DNA of 64,000 bases from positions 352,001-416,000 of the forward strand of contig CBDFJG010000002.1 of assembly GCA_965248445.1 (NCBI GenBank), written 5' to 3'. The position numbers were made by a program, and so were the translations under genes. A model generated the notes under the pieces. That model was not told where the DNA came from and searched no databases. It saw only the letters and a list, made by a program, of their open reading frames with translations. This document shows positions 40,731 to 61,825 of this stretch, in pieces. Numbering within the stretch: the stretch's first letter is position 1; each line of letters begins with the position of its first letter. Source of the DNA: Planctomycetota bacterium (GTDB lineage Bacteria > Planctomycetota > JAJSAM01 > JAJVHW01).

Positions 40731-40796
40731 CGGGAGCAGATCGGAATCGAACCGACCAACCGGGGATCGCCCGGCACACCGGTTTTGAAGTCCAGC
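40731..40796 (-). pseudogene. selC: 3' fragment of tRNA-Sec; probable att site of a selC-integrated island
   Basis: Loop CTTCAAA (anticodon TCA), long variable arm, T-arm GTCGG-TTCGATT-CCGAT, 8-nt acceptor strand CTGCTCCC and G discriminator; 5' acceptor strand and D-arm absent. Confidence 0.8.
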
Positions 40797-49735: not shown

Positions 49736-49797
49736 CGGTGCGGCCCCTCGAACCGTAGAGCTGGGGACACCCCCAACTACTCGTCGTTGTGACCCGG

Positions 49798-49829
49798 GAA
49801 CACAGAGAACGGTCGCATCTCTCACCGTG
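49798..49829 (-). repeat. 32-bp dispersed palindromic site A
   Basis: CACGGTG-AGAGATGC-GACCGTTCTCTGTGTTC. Confidence 0.8.
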
Positions 49830-49925
49830 CGCCGGATTCACGCTGCGAACACCAAGCCCGTGAGCGGCGTGCGTGATGCGCCCGACCATGAGCACGCGGC
49901 GCGCCAAGAGGGGCGAACGCCTGCG

Positions 49926-49985
49926 CACGGTGAAGGAATCCACCGTTCTCGGTATTCTCATCACCGTGTCACCGGTCTCGGCATC
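49926..49985 (+). repeat. 32-bp site B plus extra half-site (49970-49985)
   Basis: CACGGTG-AAGGAATC-CACCGTTCTCGGTATTC ... CACCGGTCTCGGCATC. Confidence 0.85.
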
Positions 49986-50018
49986 GGCACGGCGGTTCGA
50001 CTACGATGAGAGCGACGC

Positions 50019-51593
50019 ATGCGAATTGCGACGTTCACGATCTGCGCCCTCGTTGCCATCTCATCGGCGGCGGCGTCACCTGTTTGCGCTCAGGATCTCG
50101 GAGAGTCACCGTCGTTCGAGGAGCGTCGCCAGCGTGCTGTCGCCGCCGGGCTCAGCGTGGTGCGCGCTCGACTGCCGGGCGAGAAGGGGTACCACCGGAC
50201 GACGTATCCCGTCCGGGTGAACCTGGCACTCGACATGTACACGCTGCTCGAGACGGGCACCCCGGCAAGCGATCCGCTGCTGCGGGGGACGATGATCGCG
50301 CTGCGCAAGGCCGACGATCCCGACATCTGGTTCTCGTTACGGAACAACAACCCCCTCATTCGAATGCTCGCAGCCCACACGACTCTCGCTGCCGTCGCGT
50401 ATGACCGCGCGCTGCTGTCGGAGGATCCCCGCGCTGAGAGCAAGCAGTCGTACAAGAACCATCACAAGTGGGTCGAGAGTCTTGTCAGCCGACTCAGCGC
50501 GCTGCTCTCGCCCGACAACGAGCGCCTGGCTGTCCAGGCCGGCACTCACACCGATGGGACGTTCCACCTCGCGCTGGTGGCGCTACTCGAGGCGCGCGAC
50601 CTCGGGCTGCACGTGGAAGACCGCCAGTTGGCCCGATGGCTGTCCGCGTCGCTCGCTTCGCAGGTGCCCGCCGATCGGCGCAACGCAGCCACGGCCACGC
50701 CGCGCGGCTTCTCGTTCCTACCGACCCGTCCACAACACCCAGGCGCGCGCGCAGCGCTGCCATCGAGTTCGATGACCGGAGGCGCACTCGCGGCCATCAC
50801 CCGTCTCATAGACGCGCTGGGCGATTCCGACCTCCTCACGGATGCGCTGGCGCAGCGCAGTCGACACGCTCTCGAGGACGGTTTGCTGTACATCGAGAGA
50901 TCGCTCGCCGATCACACCGATCCGCGGCTGCGCGGCGAGGAACACGAGGCGGTGTTCGCGTACTTCTACTCACTTGCGTGCGCCTGTGACGCCCTGTCGC
51001 TCGACCTGCTCGGCCGCTACGACTGGTACCGCGACGGCGCCGACTACCTCCTCGCGACGCAGGATGCGGACGGGAGCTGGTTCACCCGTGGGCACCGCGG
51101 AAACGGTTCCGCCGACTGCTGGGCCCTGCTGTTCCTCACGCGGTCGCTCCCCCACGCAGGGGATCGCCCCGCGATCACGCGGAGCTCCCGCGGCGTCCGC
51201 GACGTCGAGTTCGCGAGCGTCCGTGAGCGTCCGGCCGCAGAACGACGTGCGTTCGTCCGTTCGCTCGTGCCGCGCCTCCATGACGCCACAACCCGACAAC
51301 GGCCATGGTTCTTCGCGGAGATCGCACGCCTCGGCGTGGCGGCGGCCGACGAGTTGGTCGACATCGTGGACGTCCACGCGGAGCCCGACGTTCGGGCTGC
51401 TGCCTACGAGATCCTGCGCCACGTCATCGAGCCATCGCTGGATCTGGATCCGCGAGCGACTCTCGGCCGCCGCCATGCGCAGATCGCGGCATGGCGCGCC
51501 TGGATCGACGAGCGCCGCGCGCGACTGGCGTACGACCACCGAACCGGACGTCTCGTCGAGGTCGACCGCGAGCAGCGCGTGCGCGACGGCTGA
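50019..51593 (+). CDS. Secreted prenyltransferase/squalene-cyclase-repeat-like (alpha-alpha toroid) protein
   Basis: SSMTGG, DWYRDGADYLLATQDADGSW, ALLFL; HEAT-like tail. Confidence 0.7.
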   Translation: MRIATFTICALVAISSAAASPVCAQDLGESPSFEERRQRAVAAGLSVVRARLPGEKGYHRTTYPVRVNLALDMYTLLETGTPASDPLLRGTMIALRKADDPDIWFSLRNNNPLIRMLAAHTTLAAVAYDRALLSEDPRAESKQSYKNHHKWVESLVSRLSALLSPDNERLAVQAGTHTDGTFHLALVALLEARDLGLHVEDRQLARWLSASLASQVPADRRNAATATPRGFSFLPTRPQHPGARAALPSSSMTGGALAAITRLIDALGDSDLLTDALAQRSRHALEDGLLYIERSLADHTDPRLRGEEHEAVFAYFYSLACACDALSLDLLGRYDWYRDGADYLLATQDADGSWFTRGHRGNGSADCWALLFLTRSLPHAGDRPAITRSSRGVRDVEFASVRERPAAERRAFVRSLVPRLHDATTRQRPWFFAEIARLGVAAADELVDIVDVHAEPDVRAAAYEILRHVIEPSLDLDPRATLGRRHAQIAAWRAWIDERRARLAYDHRTGRLVEVDREQRVRDG

Positions 51594-51631
51594 CGGACGG
51601 CCGCGCAGTGCGATGCCGCGAAGTACGGCGC

Positions 51632-51657
51632 AGTACCGAGAACGGTAGATCTCCGTG
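51632..51657 (-). repeat. Degenerate site C
   Basis: CACGGAGATCTACCGTTCTCGGTACT. Confidence 0.65.
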
Positions 51658-51705
51658 AGCGTTCTTCCACTCGCGAAGGACGCACCGGAGGGGCGGAGGG
51701 CTACG

Positions 51706-51755
51706 CACGGTGGGGGAATTCACCGGTCTCCGTGTTCGCACCGGTCTCGGTATTC
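51706..51755 (+). repeat. 32-bp site D plus extra half-site (51739-51755)
   Basis: CACGGTG-GGGGAATT-CACCGGTCTCCGTGTTC-G-CACCGGTCTCGGTATTC. Confidence 0.85.
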
Positions 51756-51792
51756 GCGTCGAGACGGAGTGTCCCGCTTTCTACGGTAGCGA

Positions 51793-52668
51793 CTACTGCT
51801 CGAGTGCGTCGATCCGTCGCTGCGATGCCTCGGCACTGCCGCCGACATGTTTATCTGAGGATCCGGCAAACTCGTCGACGACGAGCTGGTGCTGCGCGAG
51901 TGCTCTGCGCACGTCCACATTCTCGAGGTTCAGTGCTGACAGATGTGTGAAGCGTGCGCGAAGTTCGTCGCCGGTGTCCGGCGCGTTCGCGATGTCGAGG
52001 AAGCGGTCGGCAGCGAGCTGAAAGTCCTGGCGGAACACGGCCGAGAAGCCGAGCTGCGCCAGCGCTTCTATTCGCTCGCGTTGCGACGCCGCGGCCGCCG
52101 ACACAGACAACCGCAGCGTCGCTTCGGCTCCGTCTGCGTCGCCGAGCTTCCGCTGCGCGATGGCCTTCAGCGTGAGGATGCGGGATCGCTCTGGTCCCTC
52201 CATCTCGCCAGTGAGGAGGACCTCTGCCGCAGCAAGTGCAGATCCGTAGGACCTGATTGCTGCCGACGCGGACATGCGGATCGGGTGGGCCGAACGGCGC
52301 AGCTCCTCGAAGAGAGCTGATCGCGTCATGCCGCGCATGCGCCGCTGTTCTGCGCGTTGAGCGGCCGTCGAGCCGCCGGTGACCACAGTGCCGTGGCGGC
52401 CGCGGACTTCCCGCAGCAGCTCGGCGGCCTCACTGCGGAGATCCGCGACGCGTGTCGCGGCGGACTCGCTGATCGAACGGCGCGCGACGGGCGTTTCGCC
52501 CCGTGCTGCGACCGAGGCCGGGTACGGTGCCGCCACCACCACGGTGCTGTGGCTCGGCGCATCGGTCGGCGCGGCCGCTGCACCGCTTCGACCGACGAAG
52601 AAGCCCGCGAGCAGGGCCAGCGCGGCGACGACCAGCGACGGGATTCCGAGAGAGACGCGATCGCTCAC
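51793..52668 (-). CDS. Membrane-anchored TPR protein
   Basis: TM plus TPRs similar to the two upstream genes. Confidence 0.7.
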   Translation of the reverse strand: MSDRVSLGIPSLVVAALALLAGFFVGRSGAAAAPTDAPSHSTVVVAAPYPASVAARGETPVARRSISESAATRVADLRSEAAELLREVRGRHGTVVTGGSTAAQRAEQRRMRGMTRSALFEELRRSAHPIRMSASAAIRSYGSALAAAEVLLTGEMEGPERSRILTLKAIAQRKLGDADGAEATLRLSVSAAAASQRERIEALAQLGFSAVFRQDFQLAADRFLDIANAPDTGDELRARFTHLSALNLENVDVRRALAQHQLVVDEFAGSSDKHVGGSAEASQRRIDALEQ

Positions 52669-53555
52669 TCGTCCGACTCCGGCACGGCGCTCTCGCGAAG
52701 CGCTGTGCGCGACAGCTCGACGAAGCGCTGGACGCCCGCGTCGTCGGAGGCGCCGTGGAGCTCGAGCACGCGCTCGTGCTGTTCACGCGCGGCGCTCGAC
52801 TCTCCGATGCGCTCCAGCGAGTACGCAGCTCGCGTGCGGTACTGTGCGCGCAGGATTGGGTGGGTCTCCGGGTGGTCGGCCACCGCGAGATACCACTCGG
52901 CCGCGCTTCTGTGGTCACCGTTGCGTGCGGCAGAGTGTCCGAGCTGAGCCTTCACCATCCCCTGAAGTCGCACGGACGTTCCGGCCGCCCGCAGCGCTTC
53001 CTGTAGCGTCGCATCCGCCTGGTCGCGCTCCGCGAGTGTCCAGTAGAGCGCGCGGGCGCGCCCGACGAGCGTGCCGACGCGTTCGTCTCGTCCAAGGTCG
53101 CGCGCGAGCAGGACGTCCGCCGCGCGGAGCAGCCGGTGCGCGTCCACGACCGCCCCGGGGTGGACTTGTTTGTTGCGCAGGGCAAGCGCCAGGCGCTTCT
53201 GGAACTCGCCGGACAGTTCGAGGTTCGGCAGCGACATCAGGTGAGCGACGTCGTCAGCGATGGGTGCATCTGCGGAGGACTCCACGTACGCGCGAACCGC
53301 GGCAAGGTCTTCCCTGAGTCGCTGCACGTCGGGGCCATCCGCGCGGGCTCGGTCGTCGGGAGCGTGTCGCGCACCGGAGCTGCTCGCGGCCGCCGCGGTA
53401 CGCTCAGTTCGGTCGGCTTCGAGACGGGCGACGCGCTCGATGATCCGTGAGTACTCGGCAGTCGCGGCTTGATCGCCGGCGTCTGCGGAGAACGTCCCAA
53501 GCGCCAGTCCGGCGGCCAGGGCGACAACCATGAGGAGCGCTCCGCGCGCGTTCAC
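52665..53555 (-). CDS. Membrane-anchored TPR protein
   Basis: TM plus TPRs; GTGA overlaps. Confidence 0.7.
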   Translation of the reverse strand: MNARGALLMVVALAAGLALGTFSADAGDQAATAEYSRIIERVARLEADRTERTAAAASSSGARHAPDDRARADGPDVQRLREDLAAVRAYVESSADAPIADDVAHLMSLPNLELSGEFQKRLALALRNKQVHPGAVVDAHRLLRAADVLLARDLGRDERVGTLVGRARALYWTLAERDQADATLQEALRAAGTSVRLQGMVKAQLGHSAARNGDHRSAAEWYLAVADHPETHPILRAQYRTRAAYSLERIGESSAAREQHERVLELHGASDDAGVQRFVELSRTALRESAVPESDE

Positions 53556-55048
53556 TTCTCCCTCGCGGCTTCGAGTTTCTTCGCCGCATCACGGGCGAAG
53601 TCGGCCCACTTGCGCGTGCCGGCGTCCTCCGACTCACCGAACTCCCCGATGACGATCCGATACTCCGCGAGCGCCCGCTCGATGTCGTTCACGGAGGCGA
53701 AGTCCGATGCGGCCATGTAGCGGTAGTACGCGCGCGTGTCGTCCGGGGCCGATGCCTGTTCCGCGATCCCGAGGAACCACCGAGCCGCCGCGAGGCCGTC
53801 ACCGTGTTCGCGGGCGATGTACCCGAGCGCGTGAGCCGCCTTCCGACCGTCGTTGGTGTCCGTGCCGACCACCGCGATGGCTTCGTTCAGCGCGGCTTCG
53901 GCAGCGGGGCGATCACCGAGCAGCGCGTGAGCGCGTCCGCGGTAGGTAAGCGCAACGGCTTGCTGTTCGGTCGTTACCTCACGGTCGAGGACGACATCGC
54001 ATGCCTGCAGAACGTTGTCGGCATCGGCGACCTGCTTCGTGTCGCGTGCCAGTCGCAGGAGTCGATCGATCTCGGCGATCAGCGCGACGGTGGACAGACC
54101 CTCGAAGCGCGCTGATTCCTTCACGGCAGTCGAGTCCGCGAGCGCGCGGATCGCCGCGAGCTCGACTTGGAGCTGGTCAATCTCGCTGTCGAGCCCGCTG
54201 CCGATGTCGACCGCGCTCTCGGACTCCGCTCCCCGGCGTCTGCTGTTCGCGCGCCTCGTCGTTTCGTCCGCGGCGGCTTCTGTCGGTCCCTGAGACTCGA
54301 GTCCCTCCAAGCGTGCGGACAGCGTCGCGAGATCTCCGGCGGACGGCGATTCGCTCTCGGACGCCGAGAGTCGTCCACCCGCGAGTCCGACCAGGAACGT
54401 GAGAGCCACCAGCGCGACCGTCGTCATCTTCGTGCCCATTGCTGCCGCTCCCACTGTCCCCGTGCCCGCTGCCGTCGCGGCACTCGTACCCATGGCTCTC
54501 TCGGGAGCCATTCCCGCCAGCGGAAGCAGCGCTCCGAGCCAACTCGCGCGACCGCCCTCGCGGTCCAGTCGCCGCCGCAGGATGGCCGCGGCGCGGCGGA
54601 GACGACTCCGCACGGTCTCCACCGGGACGTTCAAGCGCGTCGCCACATCTCGTGGCGGAAGATCTTCGAAGTACCGCAGAAGAACGGTGGAACGGTACGG
54701 CTCGTCGAGCGCGAGCACCGACACCACGAGCCTCCGGTGGATCTCCGCTTCCTCGACGACCTCCGCCGCGGATCGCGTTGCTTCCTGGCGAGCGCTGGAT
54801 CGCTCATGGACGACCCGGCGCTTGTTCCCTCGCGCAAGATTGAAGGCCTCGCGCCGGACTACGCGGAAGAGCCACGCACGTGCTGCGCGTTCGTGCGATG
54901 GCCGGGTACGCAGCGCGGAGAGCCACGTGCGCTGCTCGAGGTCGTCCGCCGTCGCGTGGTCATGCACAAGCGTGAGTGCCAACTGCCGCACCCACCTGCG
55001 GTGGGCGAGCAGCGTCTCGAACGGCACAGGCGTGTGAGCGGAACTCAT
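53552..55048 (-). CDS. ECF sigma-70 factor fused to a TM segment and TPR domain
   Basis: ADDLEQ.TW, AWLFRV.R, L.EPYR..VLLRYFE, ETVRSRL.R. Confidence 0.88.
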   Translation of the reverse strand: MSSAHTPVPFETLLAHRRWVRQLALTLVHDHATADDLEQRTWLSALRTRPSHERAARAWLFRVVRREAFNLARGNKRRVVHERSSARQEATRSAAEVVEEAEIHRRLVVSVLALDEPYRSTVLLRYFEDLPPRDVATRLNVPVETVRSRLRRAAAILRRRLDREGGRASWLGALLPLAGMAPERAMGTSAATAAGTGTVGAAAMGTKMTTVALVALTFLVGLAGGRLSASESESPSAGDLATLSARLEGLESQGPTEAAADETTRRANSRRRGAESESAVDIGSGLDSEIDQLQVELAAIRALADSTAVKESARFEGLSTVALIAEIDRLLRLARDTKQVADADNVLQACDVVLDREVTTEQQAVALTYRGRAHALLGDRPAAEAALNEAIAVVGTDTNDGRKAAHALGYIAREHGDGLAAARWFLGIAEQASAPDDTRAYYRYMAASDFASVNDIERALAEYRIVIGEFGESEDAGTRKWADFARDAAKKLEAAREK

Positions 55049-55062
55049 CTCTTCAATGATAG

Positions 55063-55090
55063 AGACACCGGCCGCCGAAGATTCGGTCCC
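55063..55090 (-). promoter_or_regulatory. Candidate ECF autoregulatory promoter
   Basis: GGGACC-N16-GTGTCT just upstream of the sigma ATG. Confidence 0.4.
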
Positions 55091-55135
55091 AGATGGTCGA
55101 CGGAATCCACTTCTCGTAGCAGCCGCGGTCCGTGC

Positions 55136-55167
55136 GAAGACCGAGAACGGTGGAATCTCTCACCGTG
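55136..55167 (-). repeat. 32-bp site E
   Basis: CACGGTG-AGAGATTC-CACCGTTCTCGGTCTTC. Confidence 0.85.
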
Positions 55168-55241
55168 AGCCGGCCGGTATTCCGAGCGTCATTGGTCGCG
55201 ACCGCTCTGTAGGGACCTCCCGTCCTCTAGGATGTCCGTGC

Positions 55242-56447
55242 ATGAAGCTCCGGTCCTTCGCCGTCGTCCTCGGCGTCCTTCTTGTCGTGTTGTGCGTACC
55301 GCAGGGCGCCGCTCAGGATGAGGCGGAGGGTTCCGGTGCGGCAGAGACGCCCGAGGAAAGCAAGCCACCCGCCGACGCTGCGAAACGGAAACCGGCGCCC
55401 TCGCGATCCGCGGGCGGGTACGTCTTCCACCTTGTCGTGAGCGCTGACGGCTCCCGGGTCGCGGCCTCGACAGCTGACCGTGTGCGCGTCTGGGACGTTG
55501 ACGACAAGGCTCCTCTTGTGGACCGACGCGATCGCGCCTCGCACATGGTGTTCCAGGACATCGGCCTGTCGAAGGACGGTCGGTGGCTGGTCACTCTCGA
55601 ACTGGGCGCAGATCGGGAGACGATGGCTGTGGAGGAGAGGGCGAAGGTGTGGTCCGTCACGAGCTCGAGCGTGCCCGCGGCGACATACGGGGCAGAGCGG
55701 TCGCGAGTAGATGGCGAGTCGTTCCGCTGGCCGATCCTCTTGGCGACGTTCGATGCGCCTAGTCCCGGGCTCTTGATCTGGCGGCACCTCGTCGGACCGG
55801 CGGTCGTGACACCAGAGACCGAGGAACGCGGCAGCCCCTGGACGACCGAGCCCCCGGTCCCCTGGAAGAGGCCAGACGCTCCTCGGCGGATGCTGAAAAC
55901 AGACGCGCCGTGGCCGAAGTACACCAAGACCGTGTCCTTCTCACCGGACGGGACGTCGGTGGCCGTCTCCGAGATCAGCGGAGTGCAGGTCTACTCCTGG
56001 CCGGAGAAGGAACTCCTGTTCACGGCGACGGGAGACGCAACTTCGTACGACGCCGAGTTCGGAGGCGGTGGATCGGTGATCCTGGCGACCGCCTGGGAGT
56101 ATGGGGACGACGGGCAGCAGGTGGTGATCGCATTCGACCAGAAGGGCCGACGACTGTGGCAGCGCCGTGGCGTAGAGCTGCTGGCGCTCTCGCGCGCCGG
56201 ACGTATCGTCACCCTCGGTGATCTTGACCCGCGCGGCCCGCCGTGCGACGCCGTGCTCCGAAGGAGGACGGGTGGCGTCGAGTTGATCGACGCCCAGACG
56301 GGCAAGGTCCGGGCCCGGTGCCCGGGGGGCGGAAGGGGCTCGGTCACCGCCGCCGTGTTCTCTCCTGACGGCCAGTTCCTCTGGCTGGCCCACCGCAAGG
56401 CGGGCGACGTCCGACAGTACGAGCTCCCGGCGCATGACCGGAAGTGA
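55242..56447 (+). CDS. Secreted WD40-repeat protein
   Basis: Signal peptide; VRVWDV, SFSPDG, FSPDGQ. Confidence 0.8.
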   Translation: MKLRSFAVVLGVLLVVLCVPQGAAQDEAEGSGAAETPEESKPPADAAKRKPAPSRSAGGYVFHLVVSADGSRVAASTADRVRVWDVDDKAPLVDRRDRASHMVFQDIGLSKDGRWLVTLELGADRETMAVEERAKVWSVTSSSVPAATYGAERSRVDGESFRWPILLATFDAPSPGLLIWRHLVGPAVVTPETEERGSPWTTEPPVPWKRPDAPRRMLKTDAPWPKYTKTVSFSPDGTSVAVSEISGVQVYSWPEKELLFTATGDATSYDAEFGGGGSVILATAWEYGDDGQQVVIAFDQKGRRLWQRRGVELLALSRAGRIVTLGDLDPRGPPCDAVLRRRTGGVELIDAQTGKVRARCPGGGRGSVTAAVFSPDGQFLWLAHRKAGDVRQYELPAHDRK

Positions 56448-56548
56448 CCGAGTCGGGCCGAGCCAGGACAGAATCAGGAGCGTTCGCGCGTCTCCGCGCT
56501 ACGGATCCCGAAAGAACGAGTGCGGCACCGTCTCTCGGGTAGCCCGCC

Positions 56549-59500
56549 TCACTTGTCGGACGGGGGGGCAGCGAGCGTGACGTCGTCGGTGCCGCCGCGG
56601 ATGCTGCCGACGTCGATGCGCGTCGGATGGCCGTCGACGGTCAGCAGGGCGATCACGCGGTAATCGCGGTCGGCCAGGCCGTCGACGCGGAAGCTGCCGT
56701 CGGCGCTCGTGCGCGCCTCGCGGCGGAGGTGATCGGCGCCTTCGACCACGAAGTCTAGCCAACGATCGGGAATGGGGGCTCCGGCGGCGTCCGTGAGCGT
56801 CCCGCCGGCCGCGAGAGCGGGGCCGAGCCGCACGGTCGCCGGCGTGGACGGGTCGTGATCCGTCAGCCGTTCGGCCACGTGATCGGTTGCCGTGACGGTC
56901 AGGGTGACCGCGTCACGCGCGAGACCTGGGATGCGGAAGCGGCCGTCCTCGTCGGTAGTCACCGTCCGGCGAACGCGGCGTGGTGAAGTGAGTGTCACGG
57001 CGGCGCCAGCGATGCCGTGTCCGTTGGTGTCGGTGACGCTGCCGACGAGTTCCAGGCCTTCGCGCGCGATCAGTCGAACACCGGTCGCACCTGTTGCGAC
57101 GTCCTCGCCTCCGGTCACCTCGGCCGGAGCGCCGGGTGTGGAGGTGGGCAGTACCCGGATCCGGTAGCGCCCCGGCGGCAGCCCCGAGATCTCGAAGGTG
57201 CCGTCCGTTTCGCTTCGTGCGGTTCGGCCACCGGCCTCGAAGACCAGCCCGCCGACGGGGCGTGCGCCCTCGTCCACGACGACGCCGCCGATGGACTCGC
57301 CGTGGGTCAGCACGAGTTCCACGTCGCCGGCTCCCGCGTTCACTCCGACCGCGCGCGCGGGGAATGCGCCCGCGGCCTCTCTCGCGTACGGCGAGCTGCG
57401 GTTGGGTACCGCCACGAGGTCGTGCGGACCCGCCGCAAGGCCGGTCAGCACGAAGCGCCCGTCGCCGCTCGTCTGGGCGCGCGCCGCGAGCTCGCCCCTG
57501 GGTGCACCGGTCGGCGTGGCCTGCACGTCGACGTCGGCGACGCCGCCTCCACGGAATACGACGCGCCCCGCGATGCGCAGCCCGGGGTGGAGCGTCACGA
57601 CCAGATCGTCGCGCCCGGCCGCTACGTCACGCACTGTCGCGGACCGGACGTGGGGACCGTCGGCGGACGCCGGCGCGAAGTGCAGATCCACCGTCCCCGG
57701 GTGCAGGTCGCGCAGCACGAATGCGCCGTCGTGATCGGTCACGGTCGAGAGTCCGTGCAGACCGTGGCGGCTCACGCGCACACCGGCGAGGGGCGTGCCG
57801 TCCTCGGAGACGACGCGGCCACGGATCTCGGCGACGCGCACCAGACGCGCGGTCACCGGCTCGGGGGCTGCGGAGTCGACCGTGCTGCTCCACGTCAGGT
57901 AGCCGGCCGCGCGCACGTGCACCGCGACGCGCGGTGCGGATCCGTCTCCGCGGGCGGTGAACGTGCCGTCCTGCCGCGTCACTGCGGACACCAGGTCGAT
58001 CCGCGACGCCAGCGAGACGAGCGCGCCGGCGACCGCGCTTCCCGTCGCGCCGTCGACGACACGGCCGGTGACTTCCACGCCGTCACGCAGGACCATGTCG
58101 ATCTCGTAGAGATCTCGGCCGCGTGAGATGGGGATGTTGTCACTGCGCGTCGTCGGCAGGCCCGGTGTCTCGAGGTGGACGACGAAGCTGCCCGATGTAG
58201 TCCACTGCAGCTTTGCCTCGAACGTCCCGTCGGTGCCGACGGCCACGGGAGTCGAGACGCGCAGGTCCTCGGCTCCGGACGGACCGGCCACCACGCCGCC
58301 GGTGTGTGCGACGACGCGCGCGCGCACTTCGCGCGGCAGAGCGTCACCCGACTCGCTCCGCACGCTGCCGCGTACGCGCGCGAAGGGGAGCAGCGTGACG
58401 AGGACCTCGTCACTGTCGCCTTCCGCGGGCGCTGCGGCGCGGACGGTCGTGCGCACGTGACCCGGGGCCCAGACATACCACTCCTCGCTGGTCCCCGGGG
58501 CGACGCCCGCGAGCCGGAAGCGGCCCTCTGCGTCGGTCACCGCCGTGCCGAAGCGCGCTCCCGCGAGCGGTGTCTCGTCGGCGCCGACGATCCTCCCGAC
58601 GATCGCCGCCCCCGCCAAGACCGTGAGGTCGTGTGTCACAACAGCGCCGGGGCCGAGGTCCACGCTTGCGCCCGACCAGTCGCCGCGCGACGCGCCCAGC
58701 ATGAATGCCGGGTCGTAGAGATCGAGCCCGCGTGGGAGCGCGTACACCTTCCAGCTGCCCGACGTGAGTTCGGCGAACGCGAAGCTCCCGTCCTCCGCCG
58801 TGGTTGTGCGGCGGCGGCCCTGCGTGCCGGCGAGCCGCACCGAGACGCCGGCGATCACGCCGGCGGGACCGCGGACCACGCCCTCGATGCGAGCGGACGC
58901 GTCCGCAGCGCCCTCAGCCGCGTCGCGCAGCATGGCGATGTCGCGTCGCGTCGTCTGGCCCGCGGTCACGCTGATCTGTAGCCCGCGCGGTCCAGGCGGG
59001 CGGGGCGGAGACTTGTAGCCCGGGCGCGTCGCGGTGAGCTGGTTGAGGACACCCTCCGGCAGCGTGTCGATGCGGTACCTGCCGTCGGCGCCCGAGACGG
59101 CTTCGCCGCCGCCCTGCATGCCCCACCAGATCCCGGTGACGACGCGCACGCCCGAGAGCGGCGTGCCCGTCTCGGCGTCGGTCACCACGCCCTCGAGCAC
59201 CGCGGGCTCCGCGAGCACGATGTCGAGCGGGCCGTCCAGGGGCAGGATCACGTCTGCTCTGCGCAGCGGTTTCATCCCCGCGCGCCCGGCCCGGACCTCG
59301 TGACGGCCCCACGGCAGGTCGAGCAGCTCGTAGCCCCCGGCACCGTCGGTGACCGCGCGCCACGGGAAGCCGCGGCCGATCTGCACGACGGCGCGGGCGA
59401 TCCCGGTCCCGTCCGGTGACAGCACGCGTCCGCCGAGAGTGCATGCGGACGCGAGGAGCACATCGACGGTGAGCGAGACCCCGCGTCCCGGAGTGGTCAG

Positions 59501-59944
59501 CATCCGCACAGCGCGCGCATGGCGAGCGGCCGTCACGACGAGAGTGACCTCGGCGAACGGGGGGAGAGCGGCGACGTCGGCGACGCCGTCGGCACCCGTC
59601 GCGGCGCGGCCTTCGCGGTGCGGTGTGGCGGTGGCGATGTCCACATCGGAGTGGGGGACTCCCGTCCAGACGCTCACGTCGGCCGCGGCCACGGCGGCGC
59701 CGCTCGGGCCGCGGACGCGCACACGCAACGTGGCGCGTTCGTTCGCTTCGGCGGCCGGGGCGGGAGGCTCCGGTGCGGGCTCCCGGACGCGCCGGTCCGC
59801 CCCGTCATCGTGGGGCTCGACGGCCGGCCGGGGGGCAGGTGGCGCCGCGGTGCCGCCACCGCGCGTGGTCAGCCACACCAGGACGCCCAGGCCGATGACC
59901 AGCAGCAAGAGCACGCCCACCGCGGCGATCCTGCGGCCTCTCAT
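56549..59944 (-). CDS. Large carboxypeptidase-regulatory-like repeat protein
   Basis: TM; many GRVV...G.P..GA.V / TD.DG.F.L.GL..G repeats. Confidence 0.85.
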   Translation of the reverse strand: MRGRRIAAVGVLLLLVIGLGVLVWLTTRGGGTAAPPAPRPAVEPHDDGADRRVREPAPEPPAPAAEANERATLRVRVRGPSGAAVAAADVSVWTGVPHSDVDIATATPHREGRAATGADGVADVAALPPFAEVTLVVTAARHARAVRMLTTPGRGVSLTVDVLLASACTLGGRVLSPDGTGIARAVVQIGRGFPWRAVTDGAGGYELLDLPWGRHEVRAGRAGMKPLRRADVILPLDGPLDIVLAEPAVLEGVVTDAETGTPLSGVRVVTGIWWGMQGGGEAVSGADGRYRIDTLPEGVLNQLTATRPGYKSPPRPPGPRGLQISVTAGQTTRRDIAMLRDAAEGAADASARIEGVVRGPAGVIAGVSVRLAGTQGRRRTTTAEDGSFAFAELTSGSWKVYALPRGLDLYDPAFMLGASRGDWSGASVDLGPGAVVTHDLTVLAGAAIVGRIVGADETPLAGARFGTAVTDAEGRFRLAGVAPGTSEEWYVWAPGHVRTTVRAAAPAEGDSDEVLVTLLPFARVRGSVRSESGDALPREVRARVVAHTGGVVAGPSGAEDLRVSTPVAVGTDGTFEAKLQWTTSGSFVVHLETPGLPTTRSDNIPISRGRDLYEIDMVLRDGVEVTGRVVDGATGSAVAGALVSLASRIDLVSAVTRQDGTFTARGDGSAPRVAVHVRAAGYLTWSSTVDSAAPEPVTARLVRVAEIRGRVVSEDGTPLAGVRVSRHGLHGLSTVTDHDGAFVLRDLHPGTVDLHFAPASADGPHVRSATVRDVAAGRDDLVVTLHPGLRIAGRVVFRGGGVADVDVQATPTGAPRGELAARAQTSGDGRFVLTGLAAGPHDLVAVPNRSSPYAREAAGAFPARAVGVNAGAGDVELVLTHGESIGGVVVDEGARPVGGLVFEAGGRTARSETDGTFEISGLPPGRYRIRVLPTSTPGAPAEVTGGEDVATGATGVRLIAREGLELVGSVTDTNGHGIAGAAVTLTSPRRVRRTVTTDEDGRFRIPGLARDAVTLTVTATDHVAERLTDHDPSTPATVRLGPALAAGGTLTDAAGAPIPDRWLDFVVEGADHLRREARTSADGSFRVDGLADRDYRVIALLTVDGHPTRIDVGSIRGGTDDVTLAAPPSDK

Positions 59945-60053
59945 TCCCGGTCCCTCCGACACGTCCCCTCGGGAGCGACCTGCTCAGACCGTCGCGCCCT
60001 TCACTCCATACAACGGACGAGGCCGGCGAGGGATCACTCGAGCGCCTGCCGAT

Positions 60054-60683
60054 TCAACGCCAAGCGACAAACCGCCCGTTCAGGAACGTGAAGCGATGTT
60101 CGGCTTTCGCCCCGCTCTCGTCTTCGAGCCAGTACGACCAGATCTCTGTGCCGCCCCCGCCCGCCCGTCCCGATCGCGGGACCCCGAAGTACTCGATCAC
60201 GTCGTCCGGCGACCTGTGGAACCACTTCCTGATGTAGTTCGAGTTCGCATGGTTGCTCGTCAGTTGACGGATGCGGTCGTCCCGCTGTGCCGACCGCAAC
60301 GGCGGTCCCTCGGCCGCCCAGCGCAGGAATCCGTCCGACTTCGTCCGTCGCTCGTCCGCGGTGAGTCCGTCCACAAGGTCCGGGTCCGGTTTCGGCGGGG
60401 GACTCACCCGTCCCGGTCGGGCTGCCGCGACGCGCGCGTCGGTCGGCGACACGGGCGCATCCCCTCGCGGCAGGTCGCCCAGCCGCCGGTGGATGCGCTC
60501 CAGCAGCTTGCGCATCTCTACGGTCTCTGCGTGCAACGCAGCGAACTCCGCGGAGGACTCGGCACCTGACGGCGCGTTGCGGGGATCGCCGTCTCCGGTC
60601 CGGGACAGCACAGCGAAGAGGATGGCAGCGGACACGCCCGCTCCCACGAGGAGCGCGGTGAGGACAGTGATCGTACGGTTCAT
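60054..60683 (-). CDS. Membrane-anchored hypothetical protein
   Basis: N-terminal TM; FG.P....EIWSY...FTF.NG resembles a SmpA/BamE-like tail. Confidence 0.6.
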   Translation of the reverse strand: MNRTITVLTALLVGAGVSAAILFAVLSRTGDGDPRNAPSGAESSAEFAALHAETVEMRKLLERIHRRLGDLPRGDAPVSPTDARVAAARPGRVSPPPKPDPDLVDGLTADERRTKSDGFLRWAAEGPPLRSAQRDDRIRQLTSNHANSNYIRKWFHRSPDDVIEYFGVPRSGRAGGGGTEIWSYWLEDESGAKAEHRFTFLNGRFVAWR

Positions 60684-60763
60684 GAGAGCCCCCGGGTGAC
60701 TGAGCGCGCATCGTCGCGCGACGTCCAGTATCCACGGAGTCGGCCGGCTCGCGGAGCCGCGCG

Positions 60764-60795
60764 AACGGTGAAGGAATCCACCGGTCTCGGTCTTC
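60764..60795 (+). repeat. 32-bp site F
   Basis: AACGGTG-AAGGAATC-CACCGGTCTCGGTCTTC. Confidence 0.85.
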
Positions 60796-60894
60796 ACTGC
60801 TCGCACCATCGAGGCCAGAACATTGCAAAGGCACGGGTGTCCCGAGTTCACGACGACTCCAGCTGCGGACGGTTCTCCGAGGTACGGTAGTGCC

Positions 60895-61617
60895 GTGGTG
60901 GTTCACACCTTCCATCTGGCGAAACCCGGGTTCGTTCCGGCGATGACGGCGCTGCTGCGACCGCCCGCGCCAGCCAAGGTTGCCGGCTTGCACCACGCCG
61001 AGTGCATGCTGCCGATGCAGCTCGGCACTGCCGTCATCTCGCCCGGGCGGTGGCAGGTCCGAGGCCTTGCGATGTTCGCGGCGTGGGAGGACGAGGCCGC
61101 GGTCGACGACTTCCTCGCGGGCACCCCTCTCGGCCGAACGCTGGCGAGAGGTTGGCACGTGCGCCTGCAGTTCCTCCGCCGCTGGGGCCATGTCTCCGAG
61201 TTCGATGGCCTGCCCCCGACCGCGGGCGAGACCGATCCCGGCGCGCCGGTGGTCGCGGTGACCCTCGCCCGCCTCGCGCTGCTGCAGGTCCCACGCTTCA
61301 TCCGGTGGGGGAAACCGGTCGAGCGCCTCGTCCGCGATCACCCCTCCACCACGTTCGCGCTGGCCGCCGCCCGGCCGTGGCGGACGATCTCGACGTTCAC
61401 GGTGTGGGAATCGGCCCGCGCAATGACCGACATGGTCCACGGCCGCAGCGCCGTCCCGACCCCCGACCGCCACGCCACGGCCATGGTCGAGCGGCGACGC
61501 AAGGACTTCCACGTCGAGTTCACCACGCTGCGCTTCACCTGCATCGCCGAGTACGGCGCGTGGGCGGGTCGGACTGCGATCGTGCCGCGTGGTCGTGACG
61601 CGGGGCCGGAGGTGTAG
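60895..61617 (+). CDS. Spheroidene-monooxygenase (CrtA)-like dimeric alpha-beta barrel protein (start uncertain)
   Basis: FAAWEDEAAVDDF, TFTVWES..AM, H..AM, F..LRF. Confidence 0.6.
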   Translation: MVVHTFHLAKPGFVPAMTALLRPPAPAKVAGLHHAECMLPMQLGTAVISPGRWQVRGLAMFAAWEDEAAVDDFLAGTPLGRTLARGWHVRLQFLRRWGHVSEFDGLPPTAGETDPGAPVVAVTLARLALLQVPRFIRWGKPVERLVRDHPSTTFALAAARPWRTISTFTVWESARAMTDMVHGRSAVPTPDRHATAMVERRRKDFHVEFTTLRFTCIAEYGAWAGRTAIVPRGRDAGPEV

Positions 61618-61793
61618 CGCGCCCGCTTGGAAGGCTCGGGGCGGTCGCAACCAAGCCAACCTAGAGGGTCTCGATCTCGCTCCGGCGATCTGGCCATCCC
61701 ACCGTTCTCGCTATTCGAGGTCGACCCGGACGCCGGCACCGCGTGTGGTTCGGACGACTCTGGATAGCCGCCCGGTGTGGGGCGAACACCACC

Positions 61794-61825
61794 CACGGTG
61801 ATGGAATTCACCGCTCTCCGTATTC
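61794..61825 (+). repeat. 32-bp site H (half-site G at 61700-61716)
   Basis: CACGGTG-ATGGAATT-CACCGCTCTCCGTATTC; CACCGTTCTCGCTATTC. Confidence 0.8.

Follow-up and report, generated by a model that had tools for sequence, protein, structure and literature searches.

The window analysed here is a stretch of 64,000 nt from a Planctomycetota bacterium (C2:352001-416000 of genome G000, an assembly of 5.4 Mb in 4 contigs that is 92% complete), and its right-hand part contains a 32-bp repeat, a candidate end of a transposable element, which recurs between accessory genes. A position weight matrix (PWM) derived from the six full copies bears out the inventory of a preliminary description of this DNA, with copies at 49798..49829 (-), 49926..49957 (+), 51706..51737 (+), 55136..55167 (-), 60764..60795 (+) and 61794..61825 (+). 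A degenerate, internally shortened copy at 51631..51657 (-) was likewise confirmed, as were three half-sites at 49970..49986 (+, 3 mismatches), 51739..51755 (+, 0 mismatches) and 61700..61716 (+, 1 mismatch). The arrangement of CGGTG and CACCG arms around an 8-bp spacer is real in these copies, and none of the sites falls inside a called gene, gene calls being taken from a codon model made within this analysis. Left of 49.7 kb there is no PWM match, and the half matches with 2-3 mismatches found there look like chance.

Read from the left, the first two copies face outwards and form a 160-bp mini-element (mini-element 1, 49798..49957) whose left end has the spacer AGAGATGC. The degenerate outer half-site at 49970 and a 524-aa open reading frame (ORF; 50019..51593, +) follow; the ORF belongs to no Pfam family and has homologs of only 27-32% in G000 and in 7/16 genomes of the order. 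Mini-element 2 (51631-51737, 107 bp) joins the degenerate copy to the copy at 51706, behind which the outer 17 bp of the TIR (terminal inverted repeat, as the 32-bp repeat is called from here on) are repeated in tandem at 51739..51755. A three-gene operon on the minus strand (51793..55048) codes for one protein of 498 aa, which combines sigma-70 regions 2/4 with a long extension at its C-terminus, and for two related ones of 296 and 291 aa. The solo copy at 55136, with the spacer AGAGATTC, sits between divergent genes, and to its right lie a 401-aa WD40/beta-propeller-like protein (55242..56447, +; weak Pfam matches), a 1131-aa carboxypeptidase-regulatory-like repeat protein (56549..59944, -) and a 209-aa ORF without family (60054..60683, -). 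The 1131-aa protein has 11 old paralogs in G000 and a 47% homolog in the relative G001, in a different neighbourhood. Solo copies at 60764 and 61794 flank, in the same orientation, a 240-aa ORF (60895..61617, +), and the half-site at 61700 is the outer half of a shortened TIR. Neither ARAGORN nor Rfam finds an RNA gene in the window.

The impression that the motif is local to the window stood as regards clustering and fell as regards confinement, since the scan of the genome found 11 further loci, two of them weak. With copies less than 300 bp apart merged, G000 has 16 loci in total (two weak), five of which lie in one 12-kb stretch of the window; at least 5 of 16 loci fell within 12.1 kb in 0 of 200,000 random placements. 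The matrix gave no match in three shuffles of contig C2 and no full-site match in the reversed genome. Among 40 relatives scanned, none of them from the genus of G000, only G005, which belongs to the same family as G000 and another genus, has the motif, with 20 matches against 0 in the other 39, and the reversed-pattern control yielded 1 match in 41 genomes. A pattern scan of GTDB returned 5 loci, all in one Planctomycetota record that encodes the same transposase as described below for G005, and a scan of viral sequences returned 1 motif match. Seven single matches in metagenomes were put down to chance, as their spacers are unrelated and no such transposase is nearby. The inner heptamer resembles that of V(D)J recombination, presumably by chance.

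The origin of the repeat is indicated by contig C40 of G005, where two outward-facing motif copies surround a 342-aa gene (L011:1585-2613), one 84 bp upstream and the other just downstream. These copies are complementary at 31/32 bases and have the sequence of the window motif; the window copy at 49926 is 31/32 identical to the left one, with a likeness that spans 61 bp at 85% (49902-49962), and the inner flank of the copy at 51706 matches the one next to the left (upstream) TIR of that element. The protein has H60-x-H62 and Y119, which are invariant in 18 aligned homologs, at a spacing in keeping with the about 58-67 aa between HUH motif and catalytic Tyr in TnpA-Y1 subclass 2.1. It scores 66.8 bits against NF047646 (NCBIfam REP-associated tyrosine transposase), below the cut-off of 80, and its structure model (pLDDT 87) has E. 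coli TnpA-REP (4ER8) as the best match (E 6e-7), followed by IS200/IS605 transposases. The C-terminal domain of the model is helical with high pLDDT, and residues 274-303 match the helix-turn-helix (HTH) family HTH_23 weakly (E 0.028, below the Pfam cut-off); a C-terminal HTH similar to Bac_DnaA_C, HTH_23 or HTH_28 is characteristic of subclass 2.1. Plasmids searched for this enzyme gave partial homologs only, at <36%.

Flanking inverted repeats are present at 22/26 homologous genes (score >= 36), while the direct-orientation control at the same 26 genes reaches scores <= 28, barring three self-complementary repeats, and RTACSG near the outer edge is common to 13 of the 22 loci. Such an arrangement, an HUH/Y1 tyrosine transposase (TIRYT) gene between outward-facing TIRs, was described as the TIRtron by Di Nocera et al. 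2013 (PMC3733652), who describe TIR families "organized as REPs in dimers or clusters", and Quentin et al. 2018 equate TIRYT with TnpA-Y1 subclass 2.1 (PMC6006769). Judged by sequence, the window sites are thus very probably the TIRs of a TIRtron of this subclass. A REP/MITE origin, which the preliminary description had kept as an alternative, is the one that prevailed, the sequence being the end repeat of an HUH/Y1 transposase gene.

The motif GGGGWSAS, reported for many but not all TIRs (PMC3733652), is absent from the window repeat, and the form GGKGWSAS occurs at 4/26 homologous loci; its absence does not rule out TIRtron membership because other TIRs in that paper lack it as well. A small hairpin with GGGGACAC, which fits the published GGGGWSAS, lies at 49755-49785, just outside the first TIR of the window; it has a 26-bp look-alike at C2:17726-17751 and is perhaps the remnant of a third repeat family. 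At another locus (L049 / L126; G038:C75), a TIRYT gene has inverted-orientation tandem arrays of 28-36 bp repeats on both sides in place of single TIRs.

G000 itself encodes a single TIRYT, at C4:497083-498096, whose perfect 36-bp TIR agrees with the window motif in its outer part and differs inside. This TIR, called type-2 in distinction to the window's type-1 repeat, is dispersed in G000 with 14 matches, as solo copies, one dimer and same-direction runs, and was not found in G005. As the only resident TIRYT has a related but different TIR, the window copies are orphans, unless the matching gene sits in the missing 8% of the assembly or the resident enzyme serves both repeats. The type-1 repeat is a new orphan TIR family of a known kind, of which a similar TIR may already have been listed in print. 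Inspection by eye revealed no target-site duplication at either of the complete TIRtrons, the one in G005 and the one in G000.

The layout of short inverted arms around a spacer had first suggested targets of a tyrosine recombinase, similar to loxP, dif or pdif, at which an enzyme encoded elsewhere would invert or excise modules. The CGGTG-N8-CACCG layout does speak for such sites, and two of the 11 loci beyond the window (C2:11946 and C3:256872) lie within ~3 kb of a PF00589 gene, a family with 22 proteins in G000. The two PF00589 proteins, however, share only 26% over 175 residues, and in G005 a PF00589 gene is found on 1/12 repeat-bearing contigs, 12 kb off. The window was said to lack a recombinase, and this is correct, the nearest PF00589 gene on the contig being 287 kb away. 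The arms of loxP and dif sites are 11-13 bp long, whereas those of the window repeat measure 5-7 bp, with conservation continuing for 12 bp beyond the arms on one side only. The spacers vary among copies and strand exchange would therefore be blocked. attC ends are missing too, as had been noted: GTTRRRY/RYYYAAC occurs within 40 nt at 0/8 sites. Proximity, which the preliminary description had proposed to examine for tyrosine recombinases and HUH transposases alike, points in the same direction, as the repeat flanks an HUH/Y1 transposase gene in G005 and no tyrosine recombinase is consistently linked to it. Taken together, the recombinase explanation is highly improbable.

One locus at which TIR ends neighbour a tyrosine integrase is C3:248510-257450 (L002), where the minus strand carries five TIR ends, type-1 and type-2 together, within 8 kb beside a 370-aa integrase gene product. 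An att-like stretch is present there three times (252186, 255510 and 256275) and stands ~25 bp past each of two type-2 ends. The locus may represent an integrative element with TIR-adjacent DNA as its target.

The repeat occurs as solo ends and as back-to-back dimers of 49-160 bp, which beyond the window measure 146 bp and 49 bp elsewhere in G000 and 154 bp in G005. Back-to-back pairs can be regarded as elements because the TIRs face outwards around the enzyme gene in the same way; the inward-facing pairs that had been taken as the unit enclosing a module have to be given up in favour of this outward-facing one. Five dimers fold as single-strand hairpins with z-scores of -2.2 to -13.5. The window dimers give a weak signal (z = -2.7 for the long hairpin of mini-element 1 and -2.2 for mini-element 2) and the others a strong one, -4.9 to -6.2, with -13.5 for a type-2 dimer. 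A type-2 dimer at C4:862033-862153 exactly fills the gap between two genes, one of its ends abutting a stop codon and the other containing the called start of a nitrilase-family gene.

Across 39 copies the outer edge is sharp: positions inside it have an information content of 1.2-2.0 bits, which drops to 0.1 there, and conservation stops right after the outer TTC, while on the inner side it fades over ~18 bp. At 8/39 ends the last 7-17 bases are repeated in tandem, compared with 1% of random intergenic flanks; these eight terminal stutters include the half-site at 51739. Neither a GTAG nor a CGTC tag at the foot of a stem-loop is present in the consensus of the 39 copies. The rule by which the spacer tracks orientation holds within the window (plus copies nnGGAATY, minus copies AGAGATKC) and breaks down genome-wide. 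The dimer at C3:558366/558480 has its GGAAT-type copy on the minus strand and its AGAGATTC copy on the plus strand, so that the spacer type goes with the end of the dimer and not with the strand.

Whatever their mobile origin, copies could have been kept as regulatory boxes, be it as operators for the HTH of the TIRYT or as promoter or RNA-stability elements. The weak C-terminal HTH match would be in keeping with this, and in G000 (55136) as well as on contig C67 of G005 a sigma-factor gene has a TIR of its own orientation 80-110 bp upstream. Against such a role, copies are found between convergent, divergent and tandem genes alike, and the genes next to TIRs have no common function; many solo ends neighbour ordinary genes such as BaxI-1, NDH-2, T2SS F and ahcY. 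The positions of TIRs in G000 do not recur in G005, and no sigma-70 promoter match was found in 49.6-62 kb, a weak test for this phylum. A regulatory explanation of the copies is very unlikely. Of the 35 type-1 and type-2 sites in G000, none is wholly within a called gene and two overlap a called start.

We favour, with a probability of roughly 0.6, the view that TIRtron ends were spread by a TIRYT and piled up in dispensable DNA, with the modules mostly a by-product. By analogy with the REP system, a TIRYT that has been lost, that remained unassembled, or that is the resident enzyme acting on a related end would have recognised the repeat, nicked single-stranded DNA near its outer edge via a phosphotyrosine link and joined the nicked end to new DNA. 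Single-stranded DNA cleavage via such a link and strand transfer are performed in vitro by E. coli TnpA-REP (PMC3333891). Solo ends and mini-elements would spread in this way, the last 7-17 bases of an end would at times be repeated, and deletions and local rearrangements would start at an end. Copies would then accumulate in dispensable DNA, in this case the accessory stretch between the selC fragment (40.7 kb) and the conserved genes at ~66 kb. They would be left between genes because insertions inside genes are purged, and the apparent modules would therefore be mostly a by-product and not the cassettes of a dedicated system.

The accessory character of this DNA is reflected in the sparse DNA-level matches of 46.9-64 kb in five family members, and the block syntenic with G005 and G001 restarts at about 66 kb. 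Accumulation there is the simplest reading of the cluster. The placement in a selC island had some basis, as selC sequence is present in the window, at the left edge of the accessory region; it amounts to a 63-nt copy of the tRNA-Sec 3' part (40731..40793, -; 98% identical to C2:455518-455613), and the full gene at C2:455518-455613 is outside, ~40 kb right of the window and in the opposite orientation. The 3' copy and the full gene are inverted to each other and 62 kb apart. The genes C2:391102 and C2:453811 are adjacent in G001 and G005, and thus ~62 kb including conserved genes moved between them in G000. The part of the window from 1856 to 47100 is rich in insertion sequences (three DDE_Tnp_1_4 transposases, two IS66 and two rve-type copies), and a direct repeat spaced 984 bp is found around 45.1-47.1 kb.

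Several points weigh against the spread of ends by a TIRYT as the full account. G000, at 92% completeness, has no TIRYT bearing the window's exact repeat, and the link between repeat and enzyme is for this reason made via a relative. No demonstration of any TIRYT cutting or moving its TIR was found in the literature searched, and PMC3733652 names the study of such activity as future work. Within the window every minus copy has one spacer type and every plus copy the other, a uniform pairing that need not arise from independent insertions. Two insertions in G005 and the orientation of nested copies (6/6), both discussed in the following, fit an active capture of genes at least equally well.

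In such a capture, TIRtron ends would act as an integron-like system that uses same-orientation TIRs, an explanation to which we give a smaller though real chance. The TIRYT would cut at two same-orientation TIRs and free a gene with one TIR as a single-strand circle, which would insert at another TIR end, so that arrays grow outward from the TIRtron; the stretch 60764-61825 of the window, with its order TIR, foreign gene, TIR and again TIR, would be an example. Filled and empty sites speak for it. In the gap between ruvB and ubiE, G005 (contig C129) has a TIRYT 3' remnant, a TIR, an HNH gene of atypical codon use and a second TIR in the same orientation, and the gap measures 1440 bp; in G000 it is about 470 bp long and has no TIRYT remnant, TIRs or HNH gene. 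On contig C74 of G005, a 10.7-kb insert starts at a TIRYT remnant and holds three full TIRs, one degenerate TIR and a foreign cargo of nuclease, helicase and toxin-antitoxin genes (PD-(D/E)XK nuclease, UvrD-like helicase, AbiEi/AbiEii and a PIN pair), where G000 has 57 bp between the same two genes.

The orientation of nested copies points the same way. Of 23 TIRYT loci examined, 17 have a scannable repeat and four of these have extra non-palindromic TIR copies, 6/6 of which are oriented as the nearest TIRYT end and which enclose 1-3 genes, one short spacer excepted; on the other hand, a dimer 8 kb from the TIRYT of locus L118 has both orientations. At L121:6630-8902 (G011:C578), a TIRYT, a TIR and a nucleotidyltransferase pair are followed by 324 bp that duplicate the TIRYT 3' end at 96%, together with its TIR, next to what looks like a tRNA 3' end.

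Gene fragments that start at the outer end of a TIR or <=10 nt from it could be traces of transferred DNA. Three such copies are known, of 312 bp (91%) at L023:4128, of 407 bp (94%) at L138:18936, where the adjoining repeat resembles another TIR family, and of 125 bp (89%) at C2:15767, and the sources of such fragments are tentatively labelled arginase and amidohydrolase from their sequence. Duplicated sequence at outer ends in G000 is nevertheless not enriched (3/37 ends vs 93/599 random intergenic points), and the same applies to low-copy matches (2/37 vs 22/599). Genes beside type-1 ends show atypical codon use (26 genes, p = 0.003), an effect that counts the window's own genes and is absent at type-2 ends (p = 0.54).

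The 240-aa gene of the window looks horizontally acquired: it occurs in 2/17 genomes of the order (G000 and G005, 76% identity), and its best taxonomically named homolog, at 79%, is from Myxococcota. Its G005 homolog, though, is not bordered by type-1 TIRs, of which the closest is 2.4 kb off. A different palindromic dimer lies just upstream of that homolog (G005:C62:30550-30650; L025, L104) and may be the TIR of another family. A TIR-bounded gene at C3:254091 has a recent 1350-bp, 96% duplicate without TIRs at the second site, no window module was found elsewhere together with its ends, and paralogs of window genes are old, mostly 24-50% identical. Candidate units also vary in size and gene direction, unlike integron cassettes.

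Junctions between sites, as inversions or circles would leave, had been anticipated and were not recovered. In four runs of one sample, probably the source of this DNA, of which contigs were compared and three hold 47.4-64 kb in one piece, none was found at the sites among the 15 of 24 joints listed; contigs are prone to drop rare variants, and rare inversions or circles could thus escape. The only listed joint at the sites (55169 to 49909, 63 letters apart) corresponds to the paralogous C3 dimer, whose spacing it matches. The suggestion that the sites are joints of accessory-gene gain thus receives circumstantial support in relatives, but not from any module of the window. Capture at TIR ends is plausible as a minority view; that accessory and defence islands grow outward from TIRtrons by HUH-based capture, with the orphan array of the window as a fossil, is a tentative extension of it. 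What the sequences yield is a real repeat with hints of foreign genes joined at TIR ends.

The TIRYT proteins form a large group of HUH transposase-like enzymes, and the literature searched, mostly open-access, contained neither an experiment on them nor a report of gene capture by enzymes of this type. The present case supplies a defined pair of enzyme and repeat, a sharp outer boundary and natural filled and empty sites, and the second pair in the same genome, with its related end, is material for tests of specificity. If TIRYT only spreads its ends, the repeat is one more family. If it moves genes between same-orientation ends, this would be an integrase-free route of gene capture in bacteria and would explain some defence and accessory islands.

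Compared with known systems, integron attC and pdif sites are similar in that repeats lie at the joints of accessory genes and dimers fold into long imperfect hairpins. The window differs from them: RYYYAAC/GTTRRRY ends are missing, neither an integrase nor a XerCD site is linked, orientations are mixed, and the enzyme is of the HUH type and not a tyrosine recombinase. In one-ended transposition of IS91 and ISCR, an HUH enzyme could likewise carry adjoining DNA up to a second end-like site. IS91 has Y2 enzymes and unlike ori and ter ends, whereas a Y1 enzyme and near-identical inverted ends are found here, and transduction of this kind is hypothetical.

The repetitive extragenic palindromes (REPs) and the mosaic elements and doublets built from them (BIMEs and REPINs), associated with the REP-associated tyrosine transposase (RAYT) TnpA-REP (Ton-Hoang et al. 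2012, PMC3333891), share with the present repeat the catalytic fold (4ER8), intergenic non-autonomous inverted doublets and the pairing of each repeat family with one enzyme gene. By contrast, the window repeat has no GTAG tag, a single copy forms only a hairpin with a 6-bp stem, there are ~20 copies where REPs number in the hundreds, and the enzyme has ~340 aa instead of 165 aa. With the TIRtron (PMC3733652) the repeat has in common a RAYT-like HUH/Y1 gene between long inverted repeats rather than GTAG hairpins, extra copies in moderate number as singles, dimers and clusters, a C-terminal extension of the enzyme that is putatively HTH-like, the match here being weak, and the possibility of several repeat families per genome. 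It departs from it in carrying RTACSG near the outer edge instead of GGGGWSAS and in being an orphan in G000, while the terminal stutter, the nested same-direction copies and the TIR-bounded insertions at otherwise empty sites go beyond what the consulted portion of PMC3733652 describes.

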